NCBI GenBank assembly: GCA_022825825.1 | Contig: JAJDWA010000023.1 | Span: 104,424-168,423 of the forward strand | From: Candidatus Poribacteria bacterium | Lineage (GTDB): Bacteria > Poribacteria > WGA-4E > WGA-3G | DNA: 64,000 bases | Direction of reading: 5' to 3' | In this document: one piece after another, positions 38,598 through 45,100 of the stretch | Position numbering within the stretch: position 1 is the first letter of the stretch | Layout of the letters: each line of letters begins with the position of its first letter | Notes under the pieces: model-generated | What the model saw: only the letters and a program-made list of their open reading frames with translations | Told to the model about the DNA's origin: nothing | The model's database searches: none | Translations under genes and position numbers: made by a program

Positions 38598-39593
38598 TTA
38601 TCCGCCAATCCTTGACATATTTCGCTCAGGTTTTATAAAGTCTGCAGCATTAATTTTATGTCCCGCCTCTTTTTTCGCAACTGCATCAATTATGAGTTGT
38701 TCAATCACTTCATCGTCAGCACCTTCGCGTAATGGCGTGAGTAGGTCAGTTTCTGTTATTGAGAACAAACACGTTCGAAACTTCCCATCAGCAGTGAGAC
38801 GGATACGGTTGCAGCTTTCACAGAACGGTTCACTTACAGAAGGTATAACGCCAAGCTCAGTGCCATTATCAGCAAAGCGAAAACGTTGTGCCGTATCGCT
38901 CTTTGAATCCCCGTTTAGCGTCATTCGCTCCAGTGGATAAACATTACTAATTTTATCAATAATCTCTTTGCCGGGGATGAACATGTTGCGTCCCCAAATA
39001 TCATCGGCATCAAGCGGCATAAACTCTATGAAACGCAGCTGATAACTGTTTTCGCGTGCAAAGGTGGCTAAATCTACGATTTCATCATCAGTAAATCCAC
39101 GCATTGCAACGGCATTCACTTTAATCGGATTAAACCCGCATTCGTGTGCAGTTTTAAGCCCTTTCAGCACACGCGAGAGAACTTTGCGTCGCGTCATCTG
39201 CTCAAACTTCTCTTCGTTGAGTGTGTCTAAACTAACGTTGATACGTCTCAGTCCAGCATCGTAAAGTGCCTGTGCTTGGGTGATGAGTCCGATGCCGTTA
39301 GTTGTCAAACTGATGTCTTTCAACGCATCTATCTGCCCAAGTTGTTCAATGAGGTGCGGCACTCCGGGACGTACAAGCGGTTCGCCTCCCGTAATCCGAA
39401 TTTTGTTAACCCCTAACCCAACAAAGATACGTGTAAAATGCAAAATCTCGTCGTACGTCATCAGTGCAGAATCTGGCATAAATACCATGTCTTCAGGCAT
39501 ACAGTAGATACACCGAAAGTTACATACATCTGTGACGGAGATTCTGAGGTTCGTATGGACACGTCCAAAACTGTCGAGTAGTTGCTGTTTCAT
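38598..39593 (-). CDS. moaA: GTP 3',8-cyclase MoaA
   Basis: CNFRCIYC, FCESCNRIRLTADG..CL, C-terminal MSRIGG. Confidence 0.96.
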   Translation of the reverse strand: MKQQLLDSFGRVHTNLRISVTDVCNFRCIYCMPEDMVFMPDSALMTYDEILHFTRIFVGLGVNKIRITGGEPLVRPGVPHLIEQLGQIDALKDISLTTNGIGLITQAQALYDAGLRRINVSLDTLNEEKFEQMTRRKVLSRVLKGLKTAHECGFNPIKVNAVAMRGFTDDEIVDLATFARENSYQLRFIEFMPLDADDIWGRNMFIPGKEIIDKISNVYPLERMTLNGDSKSDTAQRFRFADNGTELGVIPSVSEPFCESCNRIRLTADGKFRTCLFSITETDLLTPLREGADDEVIEQLIIDAVAKKEAGHKINAADFIKPERNMSRIGG

Positions 39594-39622
39594 CGTTAAA
39601 TAGACCGATTTGATTTTTTAAT

Positions 39623-39651
39623 AGTATAGCATATTGTTATCTGGTTTGCAA
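39623..39651 (-). promoter_or_regulatory. Sigma70-like promoter of the moaA-suf run
   Basis: TTGCAA-17 bp-TATACT with extended TG. Confidence 0.65.
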
Positions 39652-39654
39652 GTG

Positions 39655-39680
39655 TTTTTTATAGTAAATACTATAAAAAA
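39655..39680. promoter_or_regulatory. Perfect 12-2-12 palindrome next to the moaA -35 box (operator or MITE scar)
   Basis: TTTTTTATAGTA-AA-TACTATAAAAAA. Confidence 0.5.
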
Positions 39681-39686
39681 GATTTT

Positions 39687-40068
39687 GGGTGTTTTTTTGC
39701 CAATTTATAGGTATCAATTTAAGCATATTAAGTCTGTAATCAATAAATCGGGCGGAAAGCACCGGATTGACACCTTTCTCCTGCCATCTCATAGCAGCTT
39801 GTGGACACGCACTCTCAATCACGCCACTGCCGATTTGATACCATGTCGTATGGCTCACTTCTATACCCTGACGCGATAACTCCTCTGCAGATTCTCTAAA
39901 ATCAAGATGCATCATCAAACGACACATCATCTCTGCCACACGCCGCGTGTATTTATAGTAATCATTCGTATCCTCTCCTATATGGAAAAGTTTATTAGGT
40001 AAGGATACCATTTTTATAAATACTTTTCAAACTCCCATTCAATTCATGCAAAAAAACTTTACACACCC
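39687..40068 (-). mobile_element. Internally deleted ISKra4/p-MULT-like IS remnant
   Basis: Fragments FRESAEELSRQGIEVSHTT and IGSGVIESAC..MRWQEKGVNPVL; left terminal repeat GGGTGTGTAAAGTTTT at 40068. Confidence 0.7.
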
Positions 40069-40084
40069 GCTATTTGTATTAAGT

Positions 40085-40113
40085 TTGACTTTTATCTCAA
40101 ATTAAAGTATAAT
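40085..40113 (+). promoter_or_regulatory. Near-consensus sigma70 promoter
   Basis: TTGACT-17 bp-TATAAT. Confidence 0.75.
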
Positions 40114-40144
40114 ACATTTCACTATTCTCAATTTAGGAAAAAAG

Positions 40145-40390
40145 ATGGCAACGATTGTAAAACACAATGCAACAGGCAAGAATTACTGTTTACTCGGTAC
40201 AGGATTTGGTGTCTACCAATCTGCGAAACCGAACATGTTTTTGGGAAATTGGTTGGCAGATGTAGATGAAGGTCAATACGCAATGGCATGCGTCTGTGAT
40301 AGCACAGGTAAAATTAGCTGGATACAAGTCGAAGACGTTACAGTTGTTAGTATTGATGGACAGGACATCGGTGGACTACCGCTCGCGTAA
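40145..40390 (+). CDS. Small hypothetical protein
   Basis: 81 aa, AGGA RBS, directly behind the promoter. Confidence 0.7.
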   Translation: MATIVKHNATGKNYCLLGTGFGVYQSAKPNMFLGNWLADVDEGQYAMACVCDSTGKISWIQVEDVTVVSIDGQDIGGLPLA

Positions 40391-40470
40391 CTGAAGCAAA
40401 TTCTAAATTCCTAAGAGGAGGGCAATCTCTCCAACCGTTTTTCTACTCACGAAAGGAAACTTTTCATCGA

Positions 40471-41049
40471 ATGGATTTACAGCAAATTAATATTAAGGTT
40501 TTTACAACTGAAAATAGCACGGTCAACTACACTAACTTCATCAAAGTTTTCAATCGCTGGATGGAGGAGGCTGATTCTGAAGATTACTTGAACTATGCCG
40601 ACTATTCACACGTTGATGCGGGACCGGGTGTGCTATTGATTTTGAAACAAGCTAACTATAGCATTGACAATGCCTATCATCAACATGGATTTCTCTACAA
40701 CAGAAAGCATGATGTAGAAGGTGATAACAGCGAAAAGATTCGTCAAGCACTCACTGAGACGCTTTCCAAATGCGAACTACTTGAAGCATCGGAAGAATTG
40801 GAAAATGCTATCCATTTCAACGGCGGAGACATTCTGTTTATGATAAACAACCGCCATATTGCACCGAATACAGCAGAGACAGCAGATGCGATTCAAGCAG
40901 ACCTTGAACCTGTACTGAAACAGATGTACGGCGGTGATAACTTCACAATAGAACGTACCTCTGAGGATGCTCGCGAACGTTTTGCCGTACGAATCTCCGC
41001 GAATTCAGATAAACCGATTTCAGAACTCCTCTCCAATCTCGGAGGATAA
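40471..41049 (+). CDS. Hypothetical protein upstream of moeB, ending in Gly-Gly
   Basis: 192 aa; ADYSHVDAGPGVLL motif; stop 1 nt before the moeB ATG. Confidence 0.8.
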   Translation: MDLQQINIKVFTTENSTVNYTNFIKVFNRWMEEADSEDYLNYADYSHVDAGPGVLLILKQANYSIDNAYHQHGFLYNRKHDVEGDNSEKIRQALTETLSKCELLEASEELENAIHFNGGDILFMINNRHIAPNTAETADAIQADLEPVLKQMYGGDNFTIERTSEDARERFAVRISANSDKPISELLSNLGG

Positions 41050-41050
41050 G

Positions 41051-41857
41051 ATGCTTAACTTTACGAATGAACAGATTGAGCGGTATAGCCGACATATTAT
41101 CCTCAAAGAGGTCGGCGGGATGGGGCAGACGAAGCTGCTTGAGTCGAAAGTACTGCTGATCGGTGCGGGAGGACTCGGTTCACCTATAGGCGTTTACCTT
41201 GCAGCGGCGGGGGTTGGCACGCTCGGCATTATTGATGACGACGTGGTTGACCTCAGCAATTTGCAACGCCAGATTCTACACGGCACAAGTGATATTGGTA
41301 TCCCAAAAACGAAATCTGCAGAAGCCACTATTGCAGAGATGAACCCAGATGTCAAGGTGATCCCTCACAACGAACGCATCAATTCGGAAAACGTTTTTGA
41401 GATACTGGAACAGTATGATCTGATTGTGGACGGGTGCGACAACTTTCCAACGCGCTATCTGCTCAACGACGCGTGTGTTATGCTTGGCAAACCGATTGTG
41501 CACGGCAGCATCTTTCAATTTGAGGGACAAACAACCGTGCTTTATCCAGGTAAGGGCCCGTGTTATAGATGCATCTTTCCTGAACCGCCACCGCAAGGCA
41601 TGGCACCGAGTTGCCAAGAGGCTGGTGTCTTTGGCGTTCTCCCCGGTATTATCGGTACGATTCAAGCTGTTGAAGCGATTAAAGTCCTTTTAGACATTGG
41701 TGAACCTTTGATTGGAACCCTTCTCCTTTTCAACGCGCTCACAATGGATTTCAAACGGCTAAAACTCCGTCAAGACGAAAACTGCCCAATGTGTGGTAAA
41801 AATCCTACTATTACAGAACTGATTGATTATGAGGAATTTTGTGAAGTGCGGTGGTAA
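41051..41857 (+). CDS. moeB: MoeB/ThiF-family E1-like adenylyltransferase
   Basis: RYSRHIIL, GAGGLG, SNLQRQ, DGCDNF, CYRC, CPMC; ATG at 41051 after GGAGGA. Confidence 0.93.
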   Translation: MLNFTNEQIERYSRHIILKEVGGMGQTKLLESKVLLIGAGGLGSPIGVYLAAAGVGTLGIIDDDVVDLSNLQRQILHGTSDIGIPKTKSAEATIAEMNPDVKVIPHNERINSENVFEILEQYDLIVDGCDNFPTRYLLNDACVMLGKPIVHGSIFQFEGQTTVLYPGKGPCYRCIFPEPPPQGMAPSCQEAGVFGVLPGIIGTIQAVEAIKVLLDIGEPLIGTLLLFNALTMDFKRLKLRQDENCPMCGKNPTITELIDYEEFCEVRW

Positions 41858-42189
41858 GTGCAGATACCAATTGGTTTTTCCGACATTGAAAAGGAGTAAA
41901 ACATGTTGATTGGAATTTCTATTCAAATTTTTGGGCTGGCATTGATGCTTTTTGGTATTCTACTCGTGCTGGGTCGCATTTCTAAAACGCTCAAGAGTAA
42001 TGGCGAAAGTTTGTCCAAAATTGCGAAACACCTTGAGCAAATTGATGGAAAAGACGATGATTGAAAACAAGTATCTTAACGATTGTAAAACACAGAGTCA
42101 AGATGAAAACTGCCCAATGTGTGGTAAAAATCCTACTATTACAGAACTGATTGATTATGAGGAATTTTGCGAAGTGCGGTGGTAGGTGC
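41769..42189 (+). repeat. 93-bp direct repeat of the moeB 3' end (41769-41861 and 42097-42189)
   Basis: Three mismatches: GAC/GAT, TGT/TGC, TAA/TAG. Confidence 0.95.
41903..42064 (+). CDS. Membrane micropeptide A (53 aa)
   Basis: AAGGAG RBS; MLIGISIQIFGLALMLFGILLVLGRISKTLKSNGESLSKIAKHLEQIDGKDDD. Confidence 0.7.
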   Translation: MLIGISIQIFGLALMLFGILLVLGRISKTLKSNGESLSKIAKHLEQIDGKDDD

Positions 42190-42226
42190 TATTTAAAAAT
42201 TGCTTTGATGAGACAAGGAGTTTGCA

Positions 42227-42391
42227 ATGGTAGAAAAAGGTATAGCAATAATATTATTTTGCATTGCTGGATTGACGCTATTCCACATTCTTAGTCTGAT
42301 CTGGATAGCACAAAAGATCAATAAGATCGAAAATAGTTTGTCCAAAATTGAAAAACACTTTGAGCAAATTAACGAGAAAGACAAAGATTGA
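42227..42391 (+). CDS. Membrane micropeptide B (54 aa)
   Basis: AAGGAG RBS; MVEKGIAIILFCIAGLTLFHILSLIWIAQKINKIENSLSKIEKHFEQINEKDKD. Confidence 0.7.
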   Translation: MVEKGIAIILFCIAGLTLFHILSLIWIAQKINKIENSLSKIEKHFEQINEKDKD

Positions 42392-42518
42392 TAAATAGAG
42401 GTAGCCAACGATTACAATACGATGTTGTCTCTACTTGTCCTCAGATTCTCCAATATCTCCAGTTGAAATGTATGAACTGCCTCCAATTAAAGGAACCTAG
42501 AACAATATCAATAAGCTT

Positions 42519-42659
42519 ATGGATATGGTTATTTTTGTCTCATCTATTATAATTTCGGCTACTCTCTTAATGATACGCGGAGAACTCAAGGATATTGCGG
42601 AAAGCCTATACAAGATTGCGAAACACTTTGAGCAAATTGATGAGAAAGATCAAGATTGA
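42519..42659 (+). CDS. Membrane micropeptide C (46 aa; start uncertain, possibly decaying)
   Basis: MDMVIFVSSIIISATLLMIRGELKDIAESLYKIAKHFEQIDEKDQD; same C-terminal tail as A and B. Confidence 0.55.
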   Translation: MDMVIFVSSIIISATLLMIRGELKDIAESLYKIAKHFEQIDEKDQD

Positions 42660-42751
42660 TGAGCAGTTGGAGACAACGACTGCAAAATAACATCGATTCC
42701 TCACTCCGTTCCAGAGTTTTCCAAAGCCTAAGCAAATAGGTAGCATTGAGG

Positions 42752-43513
42752 TTATGCCAAAGTTTTCTGTCGAATTGGCGAATCAATAAACAGAGAATCG
42801 CCTCCATCAATTGTCAATTCCAATCCCGTAACCCACGCCGCTTCGTCTGAACATAACCATAACGCAGCATAAGCTATATCAATTGGGTTACCTAATCTCT
42901 CTAACTGTGTCGCGACTGGAGCGATTTCTCCTTCTGGCAACGGATCCCAGATAATCCCCGGACATAACGCATGGACACGAATGTTCTTATCATATAATTC
43001 TTTTGCCAGGTTTTTTGCTGTTGCCACCATCCCCGCTTTTGCTGCAGCGTAAGCGGCGTTTGCATCTTGACGCACCCGTGCACCAGCGGAAATAGTGATG
43101 ATACAACCGCCACCGCGCGTCTCTAAAATCGGCACGAGCAGCCGTACGGGGTTAAAAAGCGTGCGCAAGTTGTTTTGCAATGCACCATCCCAATACGCAG
43201 GATCCATCGTTGTAATATCGTGTTCAGTTGAAAAGAACCCGCCCGCAGCGTGAATGAAGCAGTCAACACCGCCAAATTCAGCAACTGTAGCATCAATAAG
43301 AGACTCCACTTGTGCAGCATCTGTCAAATCAGTTTGATGTGTTAGCACATCACCACCGTTCGCGCGGATCCGTTCTGCTGTCTCTTCCATCTTTTCTGTT
43401 GTGCGTGCGGCAAGTGCTACCTTTGCCCCTTCTTGTGCAAAAAGTATTGCTGTTGCGCGACTCATATTTGAGCCAGCACCACCGATTAACAAAACTTTAT
43501 CTTTTAATCGCAT
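42752..43513 (-). CDS. SDR family oxidoreductase
   Basis: GGAGSNMS, YAAAK, IRVHALCPG, IDGG. Confidence 0.9.
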   Translation of the reverse strand: MRLKDKVLLIGGAGSNMSRATAILFAQEGAKVALAARTTEKMEETAERIRANGGDVLTHQTDLTDAAQVESLIDATVAEFGGVDCFIHAAGGFFSTEHDITTMDPAYWDGALQNNLRTLFNPVRLLVPILETRGGGCIITISAGARVRQDANAAYAAAKAGMVATAKNLAKELYDKNIRVHALCPGIIWDPLPEGEIAPVATQLERLGNPIDIAYAALWLCSDEAAWVTGLELTIDGGDSLFIDSPIRQKTLA

Positions 43514-43831
43514 TTTTAATTTCCTTTTCTGTTTACTTTATAAGTCTTGGCAGGAAAACTTGTAAATGGTAACGGAGGTCCTTTCGGTCTAAGATCAAAC
43601 TCACATTATAGAATACGTTATTTTTCATAAAACTCAAGCCAACAATCCTATCCCGAATGCAGAGATATTCAATTGTAGAGGACTTCTCTTGTTGGAGGAT
43701 TTTCCAACCCCGATAGACGAACAGACATGTTTGCTCTCGCTCAATTCATTACGCCTCTTTTAGTTTTTGTGGCAATATTTAACGTTTCTGAAATAGAAAA
43801 ACCGACAATTGAATGCCTCTGCTCCGAATGG

Positions 43832-45100
43832 CTAACGCACACCAACTGAATGACGACTAAACTGAGTTAGATAATCCCCAATCTTATCCTGAATCCCCCG
43901 CGCCGTTGCCGCCGACCCAACATAATGACTAATCAGGATGCCAAATGCAAAGACCTCACCATCTGCTGTTTTGGTATAACCTGCAAGCGCGGAAACACCA
44001 CTTAATGTCCCCGTTTTCGCACGCAATGTCTTTTCAGCGTACATCCCTTGCATCCGATTTCTCAATGTGCCGTCAACGCCAGCAATTGGAAGTGATGCCA
44101 TAAATTCCGGCATCAACTCAAAATTGTGGGACATATAAACAAGCAGCTTGGTCAACAATTCAGCGTTGAGCAAATTATAGCGAGAAAGCCCTGAACCATC
44201 AACGAACCGATGTGCAGGCGGGTCATCTATTATTTCACTCAAAAATTCAGTGACAGCCTCTCTCCCTTTTTTCCATGTTCCTGGTTCACCTTTCACTTCA
44301 GCACCGATTGTTTTGAAAAGGAACTCAGCAATCCAATTATCACTCGGTTTGTTCATGAGTTTGATAATGTCGGCGAGTGGTGGCGATAGATGTGTGGCGA
44401 CTTTGTTTGCTTCTGATGGCACTGTTCCTGAGACGACCTCACCCATCACGTCAATACCTTTTTGCATCAGTGTGGTTTTTAGAAGATGTCCACATGTAAT
44501 AGCACGGCTATCCGTTTTAACATCGGGTTCAACGCTTCGGATACTCAAAGCACTCATCCGAAACGGTTTATCATCCCACATCCATCCCGGACCTTCCCTA
44601 ACAGTGTCAAAATACGTTTCGTCAACTACAATATCTCCCTGAATAGACTTTAAACCAGTTTGCACGAATGCATCACACAATTTTTCTATATCGGTTGTCT
44701 GAAGCACTGGATCAGCTCTGCCTTTGAGATATACGTTTCCTACTACTTGCGTCCCTAATGTTGCATCAGTATAAAGCATAGTTCCAAATTGATAGTTCGA
44801 GCCAAGTTTCGCCAAGGCTGTTGCTGCTGTGAAGAGCTTTGTTGTGGAAGCGGGGTGGTGCAATTTGTGTGCGTTTTTGGTGTAAATCACCTCTCCTGTT
44901 TCAACTGCAATAACTTTTATGCCTATGCTTGCAGTAGTAAATAATGTATTTTGCAAGATCGCATCAATATCTGCATGTAGTTTTTCAAGCGGATTGATAG
45001 AAGGTGTTGGCGGTTGTGTTTCGACGGGTTTTGTCCCGAATATTCCACAACTTGAAAATAACAATACACAACAGATTAAGAAAATGCTATAGCTCTTCAT
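43832..45100 (-). CDS. dacB: D-alanyl-D-alanine carboxypeptidase/endopeptidase (PBP4, peptidase S13), lipoprotein
   Basis: PASTTK (SxxK), SDN, DGSGLSR, AKTGTL. Confidence 0.92.
   Translation of the reverse strand: MKSYSIFLICCVLLFSSCGIFGTKPVETQPPTPSINPLEKLHADIDAILQNTLFTTASIGIKVIAVETGEVIYTKNAHKLHHPASTTKLFTAATALAKLGSNYQFGTMLYTDATLGTQVVGNVYLKGRADPVLQTTDIEKLCDAFVQTGLKSIQGDIVVDETYFDTVREGPGWMWDDKPFRMSALSIRSVEPDVKTDSRAITCGHLLKTTLMQKGIDVMGEVVSGTVPSEANKVATHLSPPLADIIKLMNKPSDNWIAEFLFKTIGAEVKGEPGTWKKGREAVTEFLSEIIDDPPAHRFVDGSGLSRYNLLNAELLTKLLVYMSHNFELMPEFMASLPIAGVDGTLRNRMQGMYAEKTLRAKTGTLSGVSALAGYTKTADGEVFAFGILISHYVGSAATARGIQDKIGDYLTQFSRHSVGVR

Follow-up and report, generated by a model that had tools for sequence, protein, structure and literature searches.

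The subject here is an array of three very short genes, called pepA, pepB and pepC below, that lies after a moeB gene in a window of 64,000 nucleotides (nt) from a Candidatus Poribacteria bacterium (assembly GCA_022825825.1, contig JAJDWA010000023.1, positions 104,424 to 168,423 of the forward strand; positions given below without a locus name are those of the window). The source organism is an uncultivated sponge symbiont. The three open reading frames (ORFs), of 53, 54 and 46 amino acids (aa), all stand on the plus strand, exactly where an earlier note on this DNA, made by a model from the letters alone, had listed them (Table 1). On the homologue searches described below, the three peptides are paralogues of a small-protein family that is confined to one Candidatus Poribacteria family. 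Two features go beyond what the earlier note had seen and are central to what follows: the 3' end of moeB is duplicated within the array, and longer relatives of the peptides, fused to a ribosomal L7/L12 domain, occupy the same position after moeB in other genomes.

Aligned with one another, the three proteins share 16 invariant columns, of which 12 fall within residues 36-53 (S36, L37, K39, I40, K42, H43, E45, Q46, I47, K50, D51 and D53), and this concentration in the last 18 residues bears out the near-invariant shared tail that the earlier note had described. The hydrophobic N-terminal halves, by comparison, are scarcely alignable. The tail is also conserved as DNA, as had been claimed, since the three tails form a 3-copy repeat family of 100 nt with 64-72% identity to the reference copy, and a 27-nt degenerate pattern drawn from them has 3 matches where 0 are expected. 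Both pepA and pepB have an AAGGAG ribosome-binding site 6 nt 5' of the ATG. The motif AACGAYTRYAA, which the earlier note had placed after each stop codon, is indeed present after all three and occurs a fourth time inside the start of an upstream 81-aa ORF, giving 4 copies in the window against 0.38 expected, a number that none of 100 shuffles reached; it is not present in all relatives.

How firmly can such short ORFs be regarded as genes? A profile of the three peptides recovered 18 proteins of 46-76 aa from a collection of 5.8 billion proteins, the names given being only those of 'Candidatus Poribacteria' hypothetical proteins, and a broader profile run against whole genomes of the phylum matched 55 of 176, all in one family. 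Homologues that preserve the frame, which the earlier note had named as the thing to look for, are found in 54 of the 111 other genomes of this family (f1) against none of the 64 genomes of ten other families, and are distributed over genera g1 (29/39), g5 (23/65), g2 (1/3) and g3 (1/1). Relatives keep the frame, the ATG start and usually a purine-rich site upstream, and the start codon, frame and hydrophobic-then-amphipathic pattern persist over dozens of genomes in which the DNA has diverged. Ratios of non-synonymous to synonymous change (dN/dS), from Nei-Gojobori counts, lie between 0.10 and 0.85 overall for the type to which pepC belongs (type C; 10 valid pairs, with the L011 rows left out) and are 0.60, 0.32, 0.31 and 0.59 for types A, D, E5 and g5s. 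In the type-C tail, synonymous differences often outnumber non-synonymous ones, for instance by 10 to 5 between this genome and G030; the comparison of tail with membrane half that had been suggested gave mainly synonymous changes in the tail and, in types C and D, a 5' half with nearly no synonymous change.

Some points weigh against the coding assignment. The dN/dS values rest on small counts (4-12 synonymous differences per pair) and some are high, at 0.85 in type C and about 0.6 in types A and g5s, and pepC has no ribosome-binding site in this genome comparable to those of pepA and pepB. It could also be supposed that the ORFs do not code, and that a repeat, whether tandem or dispersed, or an RNA element stands open in one frame by chance; conservation of the tail at the DNA level would agree with this, as would the 0-1 synonymous changes at about 16 sites in the 5' halves of types C and D, which hint at a constraint on DNA or RNA. 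That explanation is nevertheless barely credible in view of the retention of frame, start codon and residue pattern over dozens of diverged genomes, the mainly synonymous changes of the tail, and the fact that a 135-aa protein carrying a recognised domain begins with the same module. A search of Rfam with 39400-43000 gave no match at E values up to 1, and the tail does not behave as the dispersed non-coding repeat that the earlier note had allowed for, there being no further copy in the genome (just three family copies, the next best match having E = 0.13). From the sequence comparisons the three ORFs are almost certainly coding.

The family belongs to neither Pfam nor NCBIfam, in line with the earlier note's failure to recognise it, and no meaningful match to either was obtained for any of the three peptides. 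A search of the ESM Atlas with pepA gave a best score of 0.88, short of the 0.9 that counts as a lead, and pointed to no informative family; viral contigs gave 195 pattern matches and 0 confirmed relatives, and metagenome contigs at least 600 pattern matches, with 1 confirmed locus among the matches listed.

Several side observations concern the DNA of the array. Between type C and D orthologues (e.g. 42392-42590 against L069, L071, L074 and L075) the membrane-helix half and the upstream spacer are almost without synonymous change, with 0-1 of about 16 sites changed in the membrane-helix half and 3-10 of about 13 in the tail half; paralogues in the same genome show the opposite of this combination of low 5' and high tail change, which might be explained by a constraint on the RNA of the 5' part or by mosaics produced through recombination. 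The 17 nt AACGATTGTAAAACACA are found identically at 40150-40166, as codons 3-7 of the 81-aa ORF, and at 42078-42094, 14 nt past the pepA stop. A genome search with a 15-mer of this shared sequence gave 21 matches with up to 2 mismatches, against 30 for a reversed control, and just these two sites with up to 1 mismatch, and in relatives the start of the 81-aa ORF drifts at synonymous sites with no co-variation with the flank motif; the shared 17 nt could be an old duplication-junction remnant or a shared RNA- or protein-binding site. The idea that the post-stop motif might be an integron-like or Xer site was dropped on inspection by eye, the motif being neither palindromic nor dispersed, and no integrase-like ORF stood out in the ORF list for 39500-45000, of which only eight ORFs were scanned against Pfam. 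A hairpin considered in the spacer before pepC (AGAGGTAGC and a downstream partner) was likewise rejected by eye, as relatives show mismatches there and not compensatory changes.

The origin of the peptides is suggested by their longer relatives. The homologue in genome G003 is a protein of 135 aa with the same membrane helix and a ...SLEKIEKHLE... helix, beyond which it carries a C-terminal domain of the Ribosomal_L12 family (PF00542, E = 4.5e-25), and PF00542 is found in 12 of 12 longer homologues, 11 of them 135 aa in length. Such fused forms, of 135-152 aa, stand directly after moeB in G170, G161, G053, G043 (g5), G003 (g3) and G001 (g2). Their L7/L12 domain is 67% identical to that of this genome's rplL, which is the sole PF00542 match in the genome; the domain is absent from the three window peptides, and no remnant of it was seen near any short form. 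In the structural model of the fused protein a helix (residues 4-50) leads through a low-confidence linker (45-59) to a domain of beta-alpha-alpha-beta-alpha-beta order (64-131). A MoeB tree of 44 loci, rooted on the genome's second MoeB paralogue, places the 6 fused rows as a basal grade and nests the 29 short and 9 empty rows in one clade (support 95/74), with 2 state changes for the fused, 7 for the short and 7 for the empty condition.

As to the direction of this change, the provisional reading is that the fused form came first and that the short form arose from it when the domain was lost. The ancestral slot protein would have had the anchor and the helix, then a disordered linker and a copy of the L7/L12 C-terminal domain of the organism's own ribosome, and the micropeptides would be its domain-less descendants, subsequently duplicated into types and lost several times. 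The polarity is provisional because the tree is of a single gene and its root branch is very long, at 6.4 changes per column; the rows, moreover, are the loci at hand, and all of this counts against placing too much weight on the order of events. A literature search found no account of the peptide family or of membrane-anchored L7/L12-domain proteins, although it was too narrow to show that none is in print. A profile search of a representative library, with a profile of 121 positions that took in one fused member's L7/L12 domain, returned 3635 matches, most of them L7/L12 domains, and just the short and fused members are used here. Many of the library proteins (e.g. P0020-P0027) carry 2-8 tandem repeats of the L7/L12 C-terminal domain in up to 1056 aa, and some multi-L7/L12 proteins have zinc-ribbon-like or membrane segments (P0118, P0147, P0156). 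From their sequences these look like a large and apparently undescribed class of non-ribosomal L7/L12-domain proteins.

The position that the peptides occupy is itself variable. With tblastn nearly all homologues fall directly 3' of moeB, in the order 192-aa ORF, moeB, peptide or peptides and often a dehydrogenase gene, and the place directly after moeB is conserved in four genera. Among 44 distinct MoeB loci, in which genomes with matches are over-represented, this slot holds one short peptide in 20, two in 8, three in 1 (this genome only), the longer fused form in 6 and no family member in 9; three of the empty loci have the dehydrogenase gene about 76 nt after moeB. The locus is therefore polymorphic, as the earlier note had expected of a comparison of cassettes after moeB, in that the number and type of peptides differ between relatives. 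The same note had pictured a constant interaction tail joined to a swapped transmembrane segment. Of this the first half is upheld, inasmuch as the tail is plausibly an interaction or oligomerisation helix, but free swapping or hypervariability is not what the N-terminal segments show: they sort into a small number of old paralogue types (A, B, C and D), and each type is conserved from species to species. Types A (like pepA), C (like pepC) and D recur across genomes at 70-90% identity, and the usual layout in genus g1 is a variable first peptide, a DNA-conserved spacer and then type C.

In other genomes the slot contains genes of quite different kinds. Gp49/DUF891 toxin-like genes (E about 5e-22) follow the peptide in G051 and G023, and a DUF433 gene, a CarboxypepD_reg protein and a Laminin_G_3 protein are present in G001, G046 and G048, respectively; G058 has a weak helix-turn-helix 'antidote'-like ORF that remains under the Pfam cut-offs. 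The gene moeB itself is kept in 61 of 61 genomes searched. Because some loci are empty, others hold unrelated genes and moeB is always kept, the slot is on this comparative evidence a hot spot for accessory genes, bounded by the 3' ends of the convergent moeB and dehydrogenase genes and outside the molybdenum-cofactor pathway.

The most recent event in the array can be tentatively reconstructed. The 93-nt 3' end of moeB, whose first base, 41769, is the start coordinate given in the earlier note, recurs between pepA and pepB at 97% identity, a duplicate seen only in this genome among all loci compared, while the moeB ends of other species are at most 92% identical to it. A contig from another sample joins 41842 to 42171, skipping exactly 328 nt, and so has moeB followed by pepB with no pepA unit; on this same contig the pepC region is replaced by 606 other letters. 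A contig from a second other sample reads moeB, pepA, 35 nt and pepB, without the moeB fragment. The flank after pepA, for its part, resembles the end-of-array flank 3' of type C in G030, G032 and G134. The 328-nt unit, comprising a moeB 3' end, pepA and an array-end flank, was probably gained by recombination with a close relative's allele. Illegitimate or unequal recombination would have placed it ahead of moeB, pepB and pepC as they already stood in the resident locus, leaving behind the orphan moeB end.

The module is also used beyond moeB, although these other contexts fix no function. A subgroup of 59-61 aa lies directly 5' of, or overlaps, a DUF58 gene in G056, G134 and G034 of genus g1. 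The three loci are entered in Table 1, the overlap in G134 being 4 nt, and this genome has no close orthologue of the DUF58/vWA gene (best match 52% identical). In G018 an extra copy stands behind a fused PARIS AriAB-like gene (E = 5.9e-35), and a second type-C copy in G052 stands beside a 293-aa ORF that is also found at the G052 moeB locus, which suggests a copied segment.

The immediate neighbours are collected in Table 1. The identity of moeB is clear from its match to the ThiF Pfam family (E = 2e-85) and to several NCBIfam MoeB models. Its longest ORF shares 83 nt with the preceding 192-aa ORF, and the true start may be the ATG at 41051, the annotated start lying perhaps 84 nt too far upstream, because the MoeB products of relatives, of 268 aa, begin at the corresponding methionine. 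The near-consensus promoter ahead of the 81-aa ORF may be the start of an operon running through the 192-aa ORF and moeB to the peptides, and no transcription terminator was found in a terminator scan of the locus.

Table 1. Features of the moeB locus and of related loci; positions are those of the window unless a locus is named.
Feature	Position	Strand	Remarks
Sigma-70-like promoter (TTGACT, 17 nt, TATAAT)	40085..40113	+	By eye; 32 nt 5' of the 81-aa ORF
81-aa ORF	40145..40390	+	Conserved in relatives, without Pfam family; AACGAYTRYAA copy at 40150; codons 3-7 are 17 nt also present 3' of the pepA stop
192-aa ORF	40471..41049	+	Conserved, without family, syntenic with moeB in relatives
moeB, ThiF-family adenylyltransferase	40967..41857	+	Longest ORF
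Direct-repeat copy 1 (93 nt)	41769..41861	+	True moeB 3' end
pepA, type A	41903..42064	+	53 aa; AAGGAG at 41891-41896
Post-stop motif of pepA	42078..42094	+	17 nt identical to 40150-40166; flank resembles the end-of-array flank of relatives
Direct-repeat copy 2 (93 nt)	42097..42189	+	Orphan moeB 3' end, 97% identical to copy 1; marks the 328-nt added unit
pepB, type B	42227..42391	+	54 aa; AAGGAG at 42215-42220
Spacer ahead of type-C peptide	42392..42518	+	DNA-conserved across genus g1; second motif copy at 42407-42417
pepC, type C	42519..42659	+	46 aa; most widespread type; no clear ribosome-binding site in this genome
Post-stop motif, third copy	42675..42685	+
Short-chain dehydrogenase gene	42752..43513	-	Convergent; bounds the variable slot
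Toxin-antitoxin-type gene in slot, L024	1107-1481	-
Toxin-antitoxin-type gene in slot, L029	1607-1987	+
Toxin-antitoxin-type gene in slot, L059	2536-2940	+
Toxin-antitoxin-type gene in slot, L082	1460-1729	-
59-61-aa subgroup with DUF58/vWA gene, L084	3033-4156
59-61-aa subgroup with DUF58/vWA gene, L086	1595-2715
59-61-aa subgroup with DUF58/vWA gene, L085	1594-2711
Second MoeB of this genome	G000:C16:32633-33424	-	412-aa rhodanese-MoeB fusion; locus L092 783..2021

A second MoeB paralogue, 62-64% identical and with one in-frame TGA, is present in 61 of 61 family genomes searched and takes the form of a rhodanese-MoeB fusion in this one. The TGA aligns with a conserved cysteine of the window MoeB (GMVPS-TGA-SEAG against GMAPSCQEAG) and, on that alignment, probably encodes selenocysteine at the active-site loop. 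MoeB-like selenoproteins are listed in marine surveys.

What, then, would these peptides look like in the cell? All are predicted to follow one plan, in which a short uncharged or acidic N-terminus is followed by a membrane helix of about 20 residues, lysine or arginine just after it and a cytoplasmic helix with the signature ESLxKIxKHLE. Across 31 members the best 19-residue hydrophobic window starts at residues 1-13, the N-terminal net charge is 0 or negative in 30, and 1-4 lysine or arginine residues occur in the 8 residues past the window in every one. An orientation with the N-terminus out and the C-terminus in fits this charge pattern, and also the cytoplasmic nature of the domain that the relatives carry at the C-terminus. 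In the AlphaFold2 model, built with an alignment of 30 sequences, pepA is a single helix from residue 2 to residue 51 (mean predicted local distance difference test, pLDDT, of 91.5), and each peptide is accordingly predicted to be one continuous helix, its N-terminal membrane part running into a cytoplasmic part with unbroken heptads. The hydrophobic residues at 3-4 spacing (I19, L23, I26, L30, I/N33, L37, I40, L/F44 and I47) form a series that begins within the membrane helix and continues unbroken to the end. Two of them, L37 and I40, are invariant, and L23, I26, S36 and H43 are at least 90% conserved.

The character of this seam resembles that of certain designed peptides. A profile search of the PDB with the tail gave designed coiled-coil barrels as its only strong matches, headed by sc-CC-5-24 (E = 1.4e-13), with CC-Hex2, CC-Pent2 and CC-Hept at E values of 0.006 to 0.5. 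In such designs, repeats of the form L-p-p-I-A-p-Z with threonine, serine or alanine at Z yield barrels of 5, 6 or 7 helices (PMC8503928). The heptads of type C, LKDIAES-LYKIAKH, comprise one exact and one near L/I-p-p-I-A-p-Z heptad, and type A has one (LSKIAKH); over the 31 members position e is alanine in 17 and position g serine in 28. A prediction of a pepC complex of four copies, with alignment, scored 0.32 against a mark of 0.42, the controls scoring 0.00-0.04, and weighs neither way on oligomerisation. From the heptad pattern a membrane-anchored parallel coiled-coil oligomer is likely, and a barrel with a channel is possible.

This view of the tail has to be set against a number of difficulties. 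The E values of the PDB matches are inflated because the designed targets are repetitive, and the coiled-coil reading spans just 2-3 heptads. The barrel could not be family-wide because type A and the fused forms break the heptad rule, type A having asparagine and glycine in its first heptad where type C has isoleucine and alanine, and the fused forms, which do not fit the barrel rule, having arginine or glutamate at e. Moreover, K39, K42 and E45 face the solvent and yet are strongly conserved, which points to a partner and which a model of pure self-assembly leaves unexplained.

Taking these lines together, the account that we prefer is that the peptides are domain-loss micropeptides, duplicated and reshuffled in an accessory slot, which form a membrane-anchored coiled-coil oligomer acting as a scaffold or pore; as a whole it has, in our estimation, a little better than an even chance of being correct. 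In this process the peptides would insert with the N-terminus out and the C-terminus in, and would associate with themselves or with one another through the continuous heptad seam, so that helices lying in parallel form bundles on the inner side of the membrane. The outcome would be a small oligomeric scaffold or pore, with a physiological role that is accessory and not part of molybdenum-cofactor synthesis. A bolder, pseudo-stalk version is distinctly unlikely: the ancestor would have been a membrane-tethered oligomer of L7/L12 domains on linkers, holding translational GTPases or ribosomes at the inner membrane, and once the domain was lost in g1 and part of g5 the anchors would have evolved their Leu-Ile-Ala-Ser heptads and would now be natural alpha-helical barrels that continue into the membrane as hetero-oligomeric micro-channels, with a composition set by the stacked paralogue types.

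The most obvious competitor is that these are peptides of the type I toxin kind, pore-forming or depolarising, silenced by antisense RNA over the conserved 3' end and arrayed as selfish modules. Their length of under 60 aa, single hydrophobic helix and charged tail, their tandem paralogues and patchy occurrence among close relatives, and the Gp49/DUF891 and DUF433 toxin-antitoxin-type genes in the same slot of other genomes would all accord with this, as would the conservation of tail and post-stop motif as DNA. The motif after pepA even reads in reverse complement as a -10-like TACAAT, with two minus-strand promoter-like sites there; such sites, though, number 4 against 3.5 expected in shuffles and are not enriched, and the motif is not universal among relatives. 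The strong AAGGAG sites of pepA and pepB close behind moeB, with no terminator between, suggest constitutive co-translation with a housekeeping operon, which would be odd for a toxin, while the largely synonymous differences of the tail imply constraint on the protein and the fused relatives point to a structural anchor role. PADLOC, searched with the three peptides, one fused form and one G018 copy, gave no match and the viral contigs no confirmed relative, and a toxin-like function is on balance unlikely.

The same two negative results leave the immunity or exclusion role that the earlier note had offered without positive evidence. On that proposal different membrane-acting toxins or phage proteins would be recognised through the variable membrane helix, while a shared function would reside in the constant tail. 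It could call on the differences in array composition between strains and species, on the extra G018 copy that adjoins the PARIS AriAB-like gene, and on the orphan 3' gene end beside a displaced module, which resembles the orphan modules of polymorphic-toxin loci. The defence-gene neighbour is a single case, however, the duplicated gene end is that of moeB, a housekeeping enzyme and not a toxin, and the types are few and conserved across species where hypervariability would be expected; in the neighbourhood within the window there is no cognate toxin, bacteriocin, secretion or phage gene. We consider the proposal improbable. A partnership with MoeB or the molybdenum cofactor, for instance as a membrane tether for MoeB or as a minor subunit in a membrane complex that handles molybdate or contains a molybdoenzyme, is more improbable still. 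The conserved place directly after moeB in four genera speaks for it, together with co-transcription, which is likely because of the short gaps, the ribosome-binding sites and the lack of a predicted terminator. Against this, moeB is retained in all 61 genomes searched in spite of the slot being empty in 9 of 44 rows, three of these with the dehydrogenase gene close behind moeB, the slot also takes unrelated accessory genes, and other family members adjoin a DUF58 gene or sit elsewhere.

Small membrane proteins are routinely missed by annotation, and few of their families have a traceable origin, as this one has. It offers a concrete example of a micropeptide that would have arisen by domain loss followed by expansion, tied by synteny to a fusion with a ribosomal-stalk domain. 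The tail carries the heptad code that designers use for helical barrels, and its natural use at a membrane is open to tests with synthetic peptides. The membrane-anchored L7/L12-domain proteins are worth study in their own right.

Among known families, the only recurring Pfam signal is DUF948 (PF06103), which matches 10 of the 31 members with a best E of 9e-4 and, where listed, 12.6-17.1 bits, in every case far below the gathering score of 37.2 bits; the matches always cover the membrane helix together with the beginning of the cytoplasmic one, and none of pepA, pepB and pepC reaches E = 0.1. DUF948 is the family of FacZ of Staphylococcus aureus, which is described as an 18-kDa protein whose short N-terminus lies outside the cell and leads into a membrane helix, with a coiled coil next to the membrane on the cytoplasmic side, predicted homo-oligomers of 3-4 protomers and a long, disordered, positively charged C-terminus that binds GpsB (PMC10914604). 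The peptides share with DUF948 and FacZ the succession of a membrane helix (hydrophobic window at residues 1-23) and coiled-coil positions to residue 47. Unlike FacZ, they end 6-10 residues after the helix, without a long disordered partner-binding C-terminus, and they are confined to one Poribacteria family whereas FacZ comes from Firmicutes. The Holin BlyA family (PF05102) matches 4 of the 31 members with a best E of 0.021, which falls short of membership, and no phage context accompanies it.

Type I toxins are peptides shorter than 60 aa in which a single membrane helix is followed by a charged C-terminal tail; they occur as tandem paralogues in a patchy manner, and are defined by an antisense RNA and by toxicity. 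The present peptides are like them in size, in the single membrane helix, in their tandem copies and in their patchy distribution. They differ in that the tail is a conserved heptad helix of 25 residues and not a short charged stub, and in the strong ribosome-binding sites of pepA and pepB behind a housekeeping gene.

The likeness to the designed Type-2 alpha-helical barrels CC-Hex2, CC-Pent and CC-Hept lies in leucine at a, isoleucine at d, alanine at e and a small residue at g, as in LKDIAES-LYKIAKH beside LKEIAxS, and the contrast in the 2-3 heptads against four and in the histidine at g of the second heptad (PMC8503928). The natural peptides are, furthermore, anchored in a membrane where the designs are soluble, and type A and the fused forms break the rule for e and g. 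The layout of the ribosomal stalk protein bL12 (L7/L12) is that of an oligomerising N-terminal helix, a flexible linker and a C-terminal domain. The fused relatives have a similar layout, with a true L7/L12 C-terminal domain that follows an N-terminal helix and a flexible linker; where they depart from bL12 is in an N-terminal part that would serve as a membrane anchor and coiled coil and not as an L10-binding domain.

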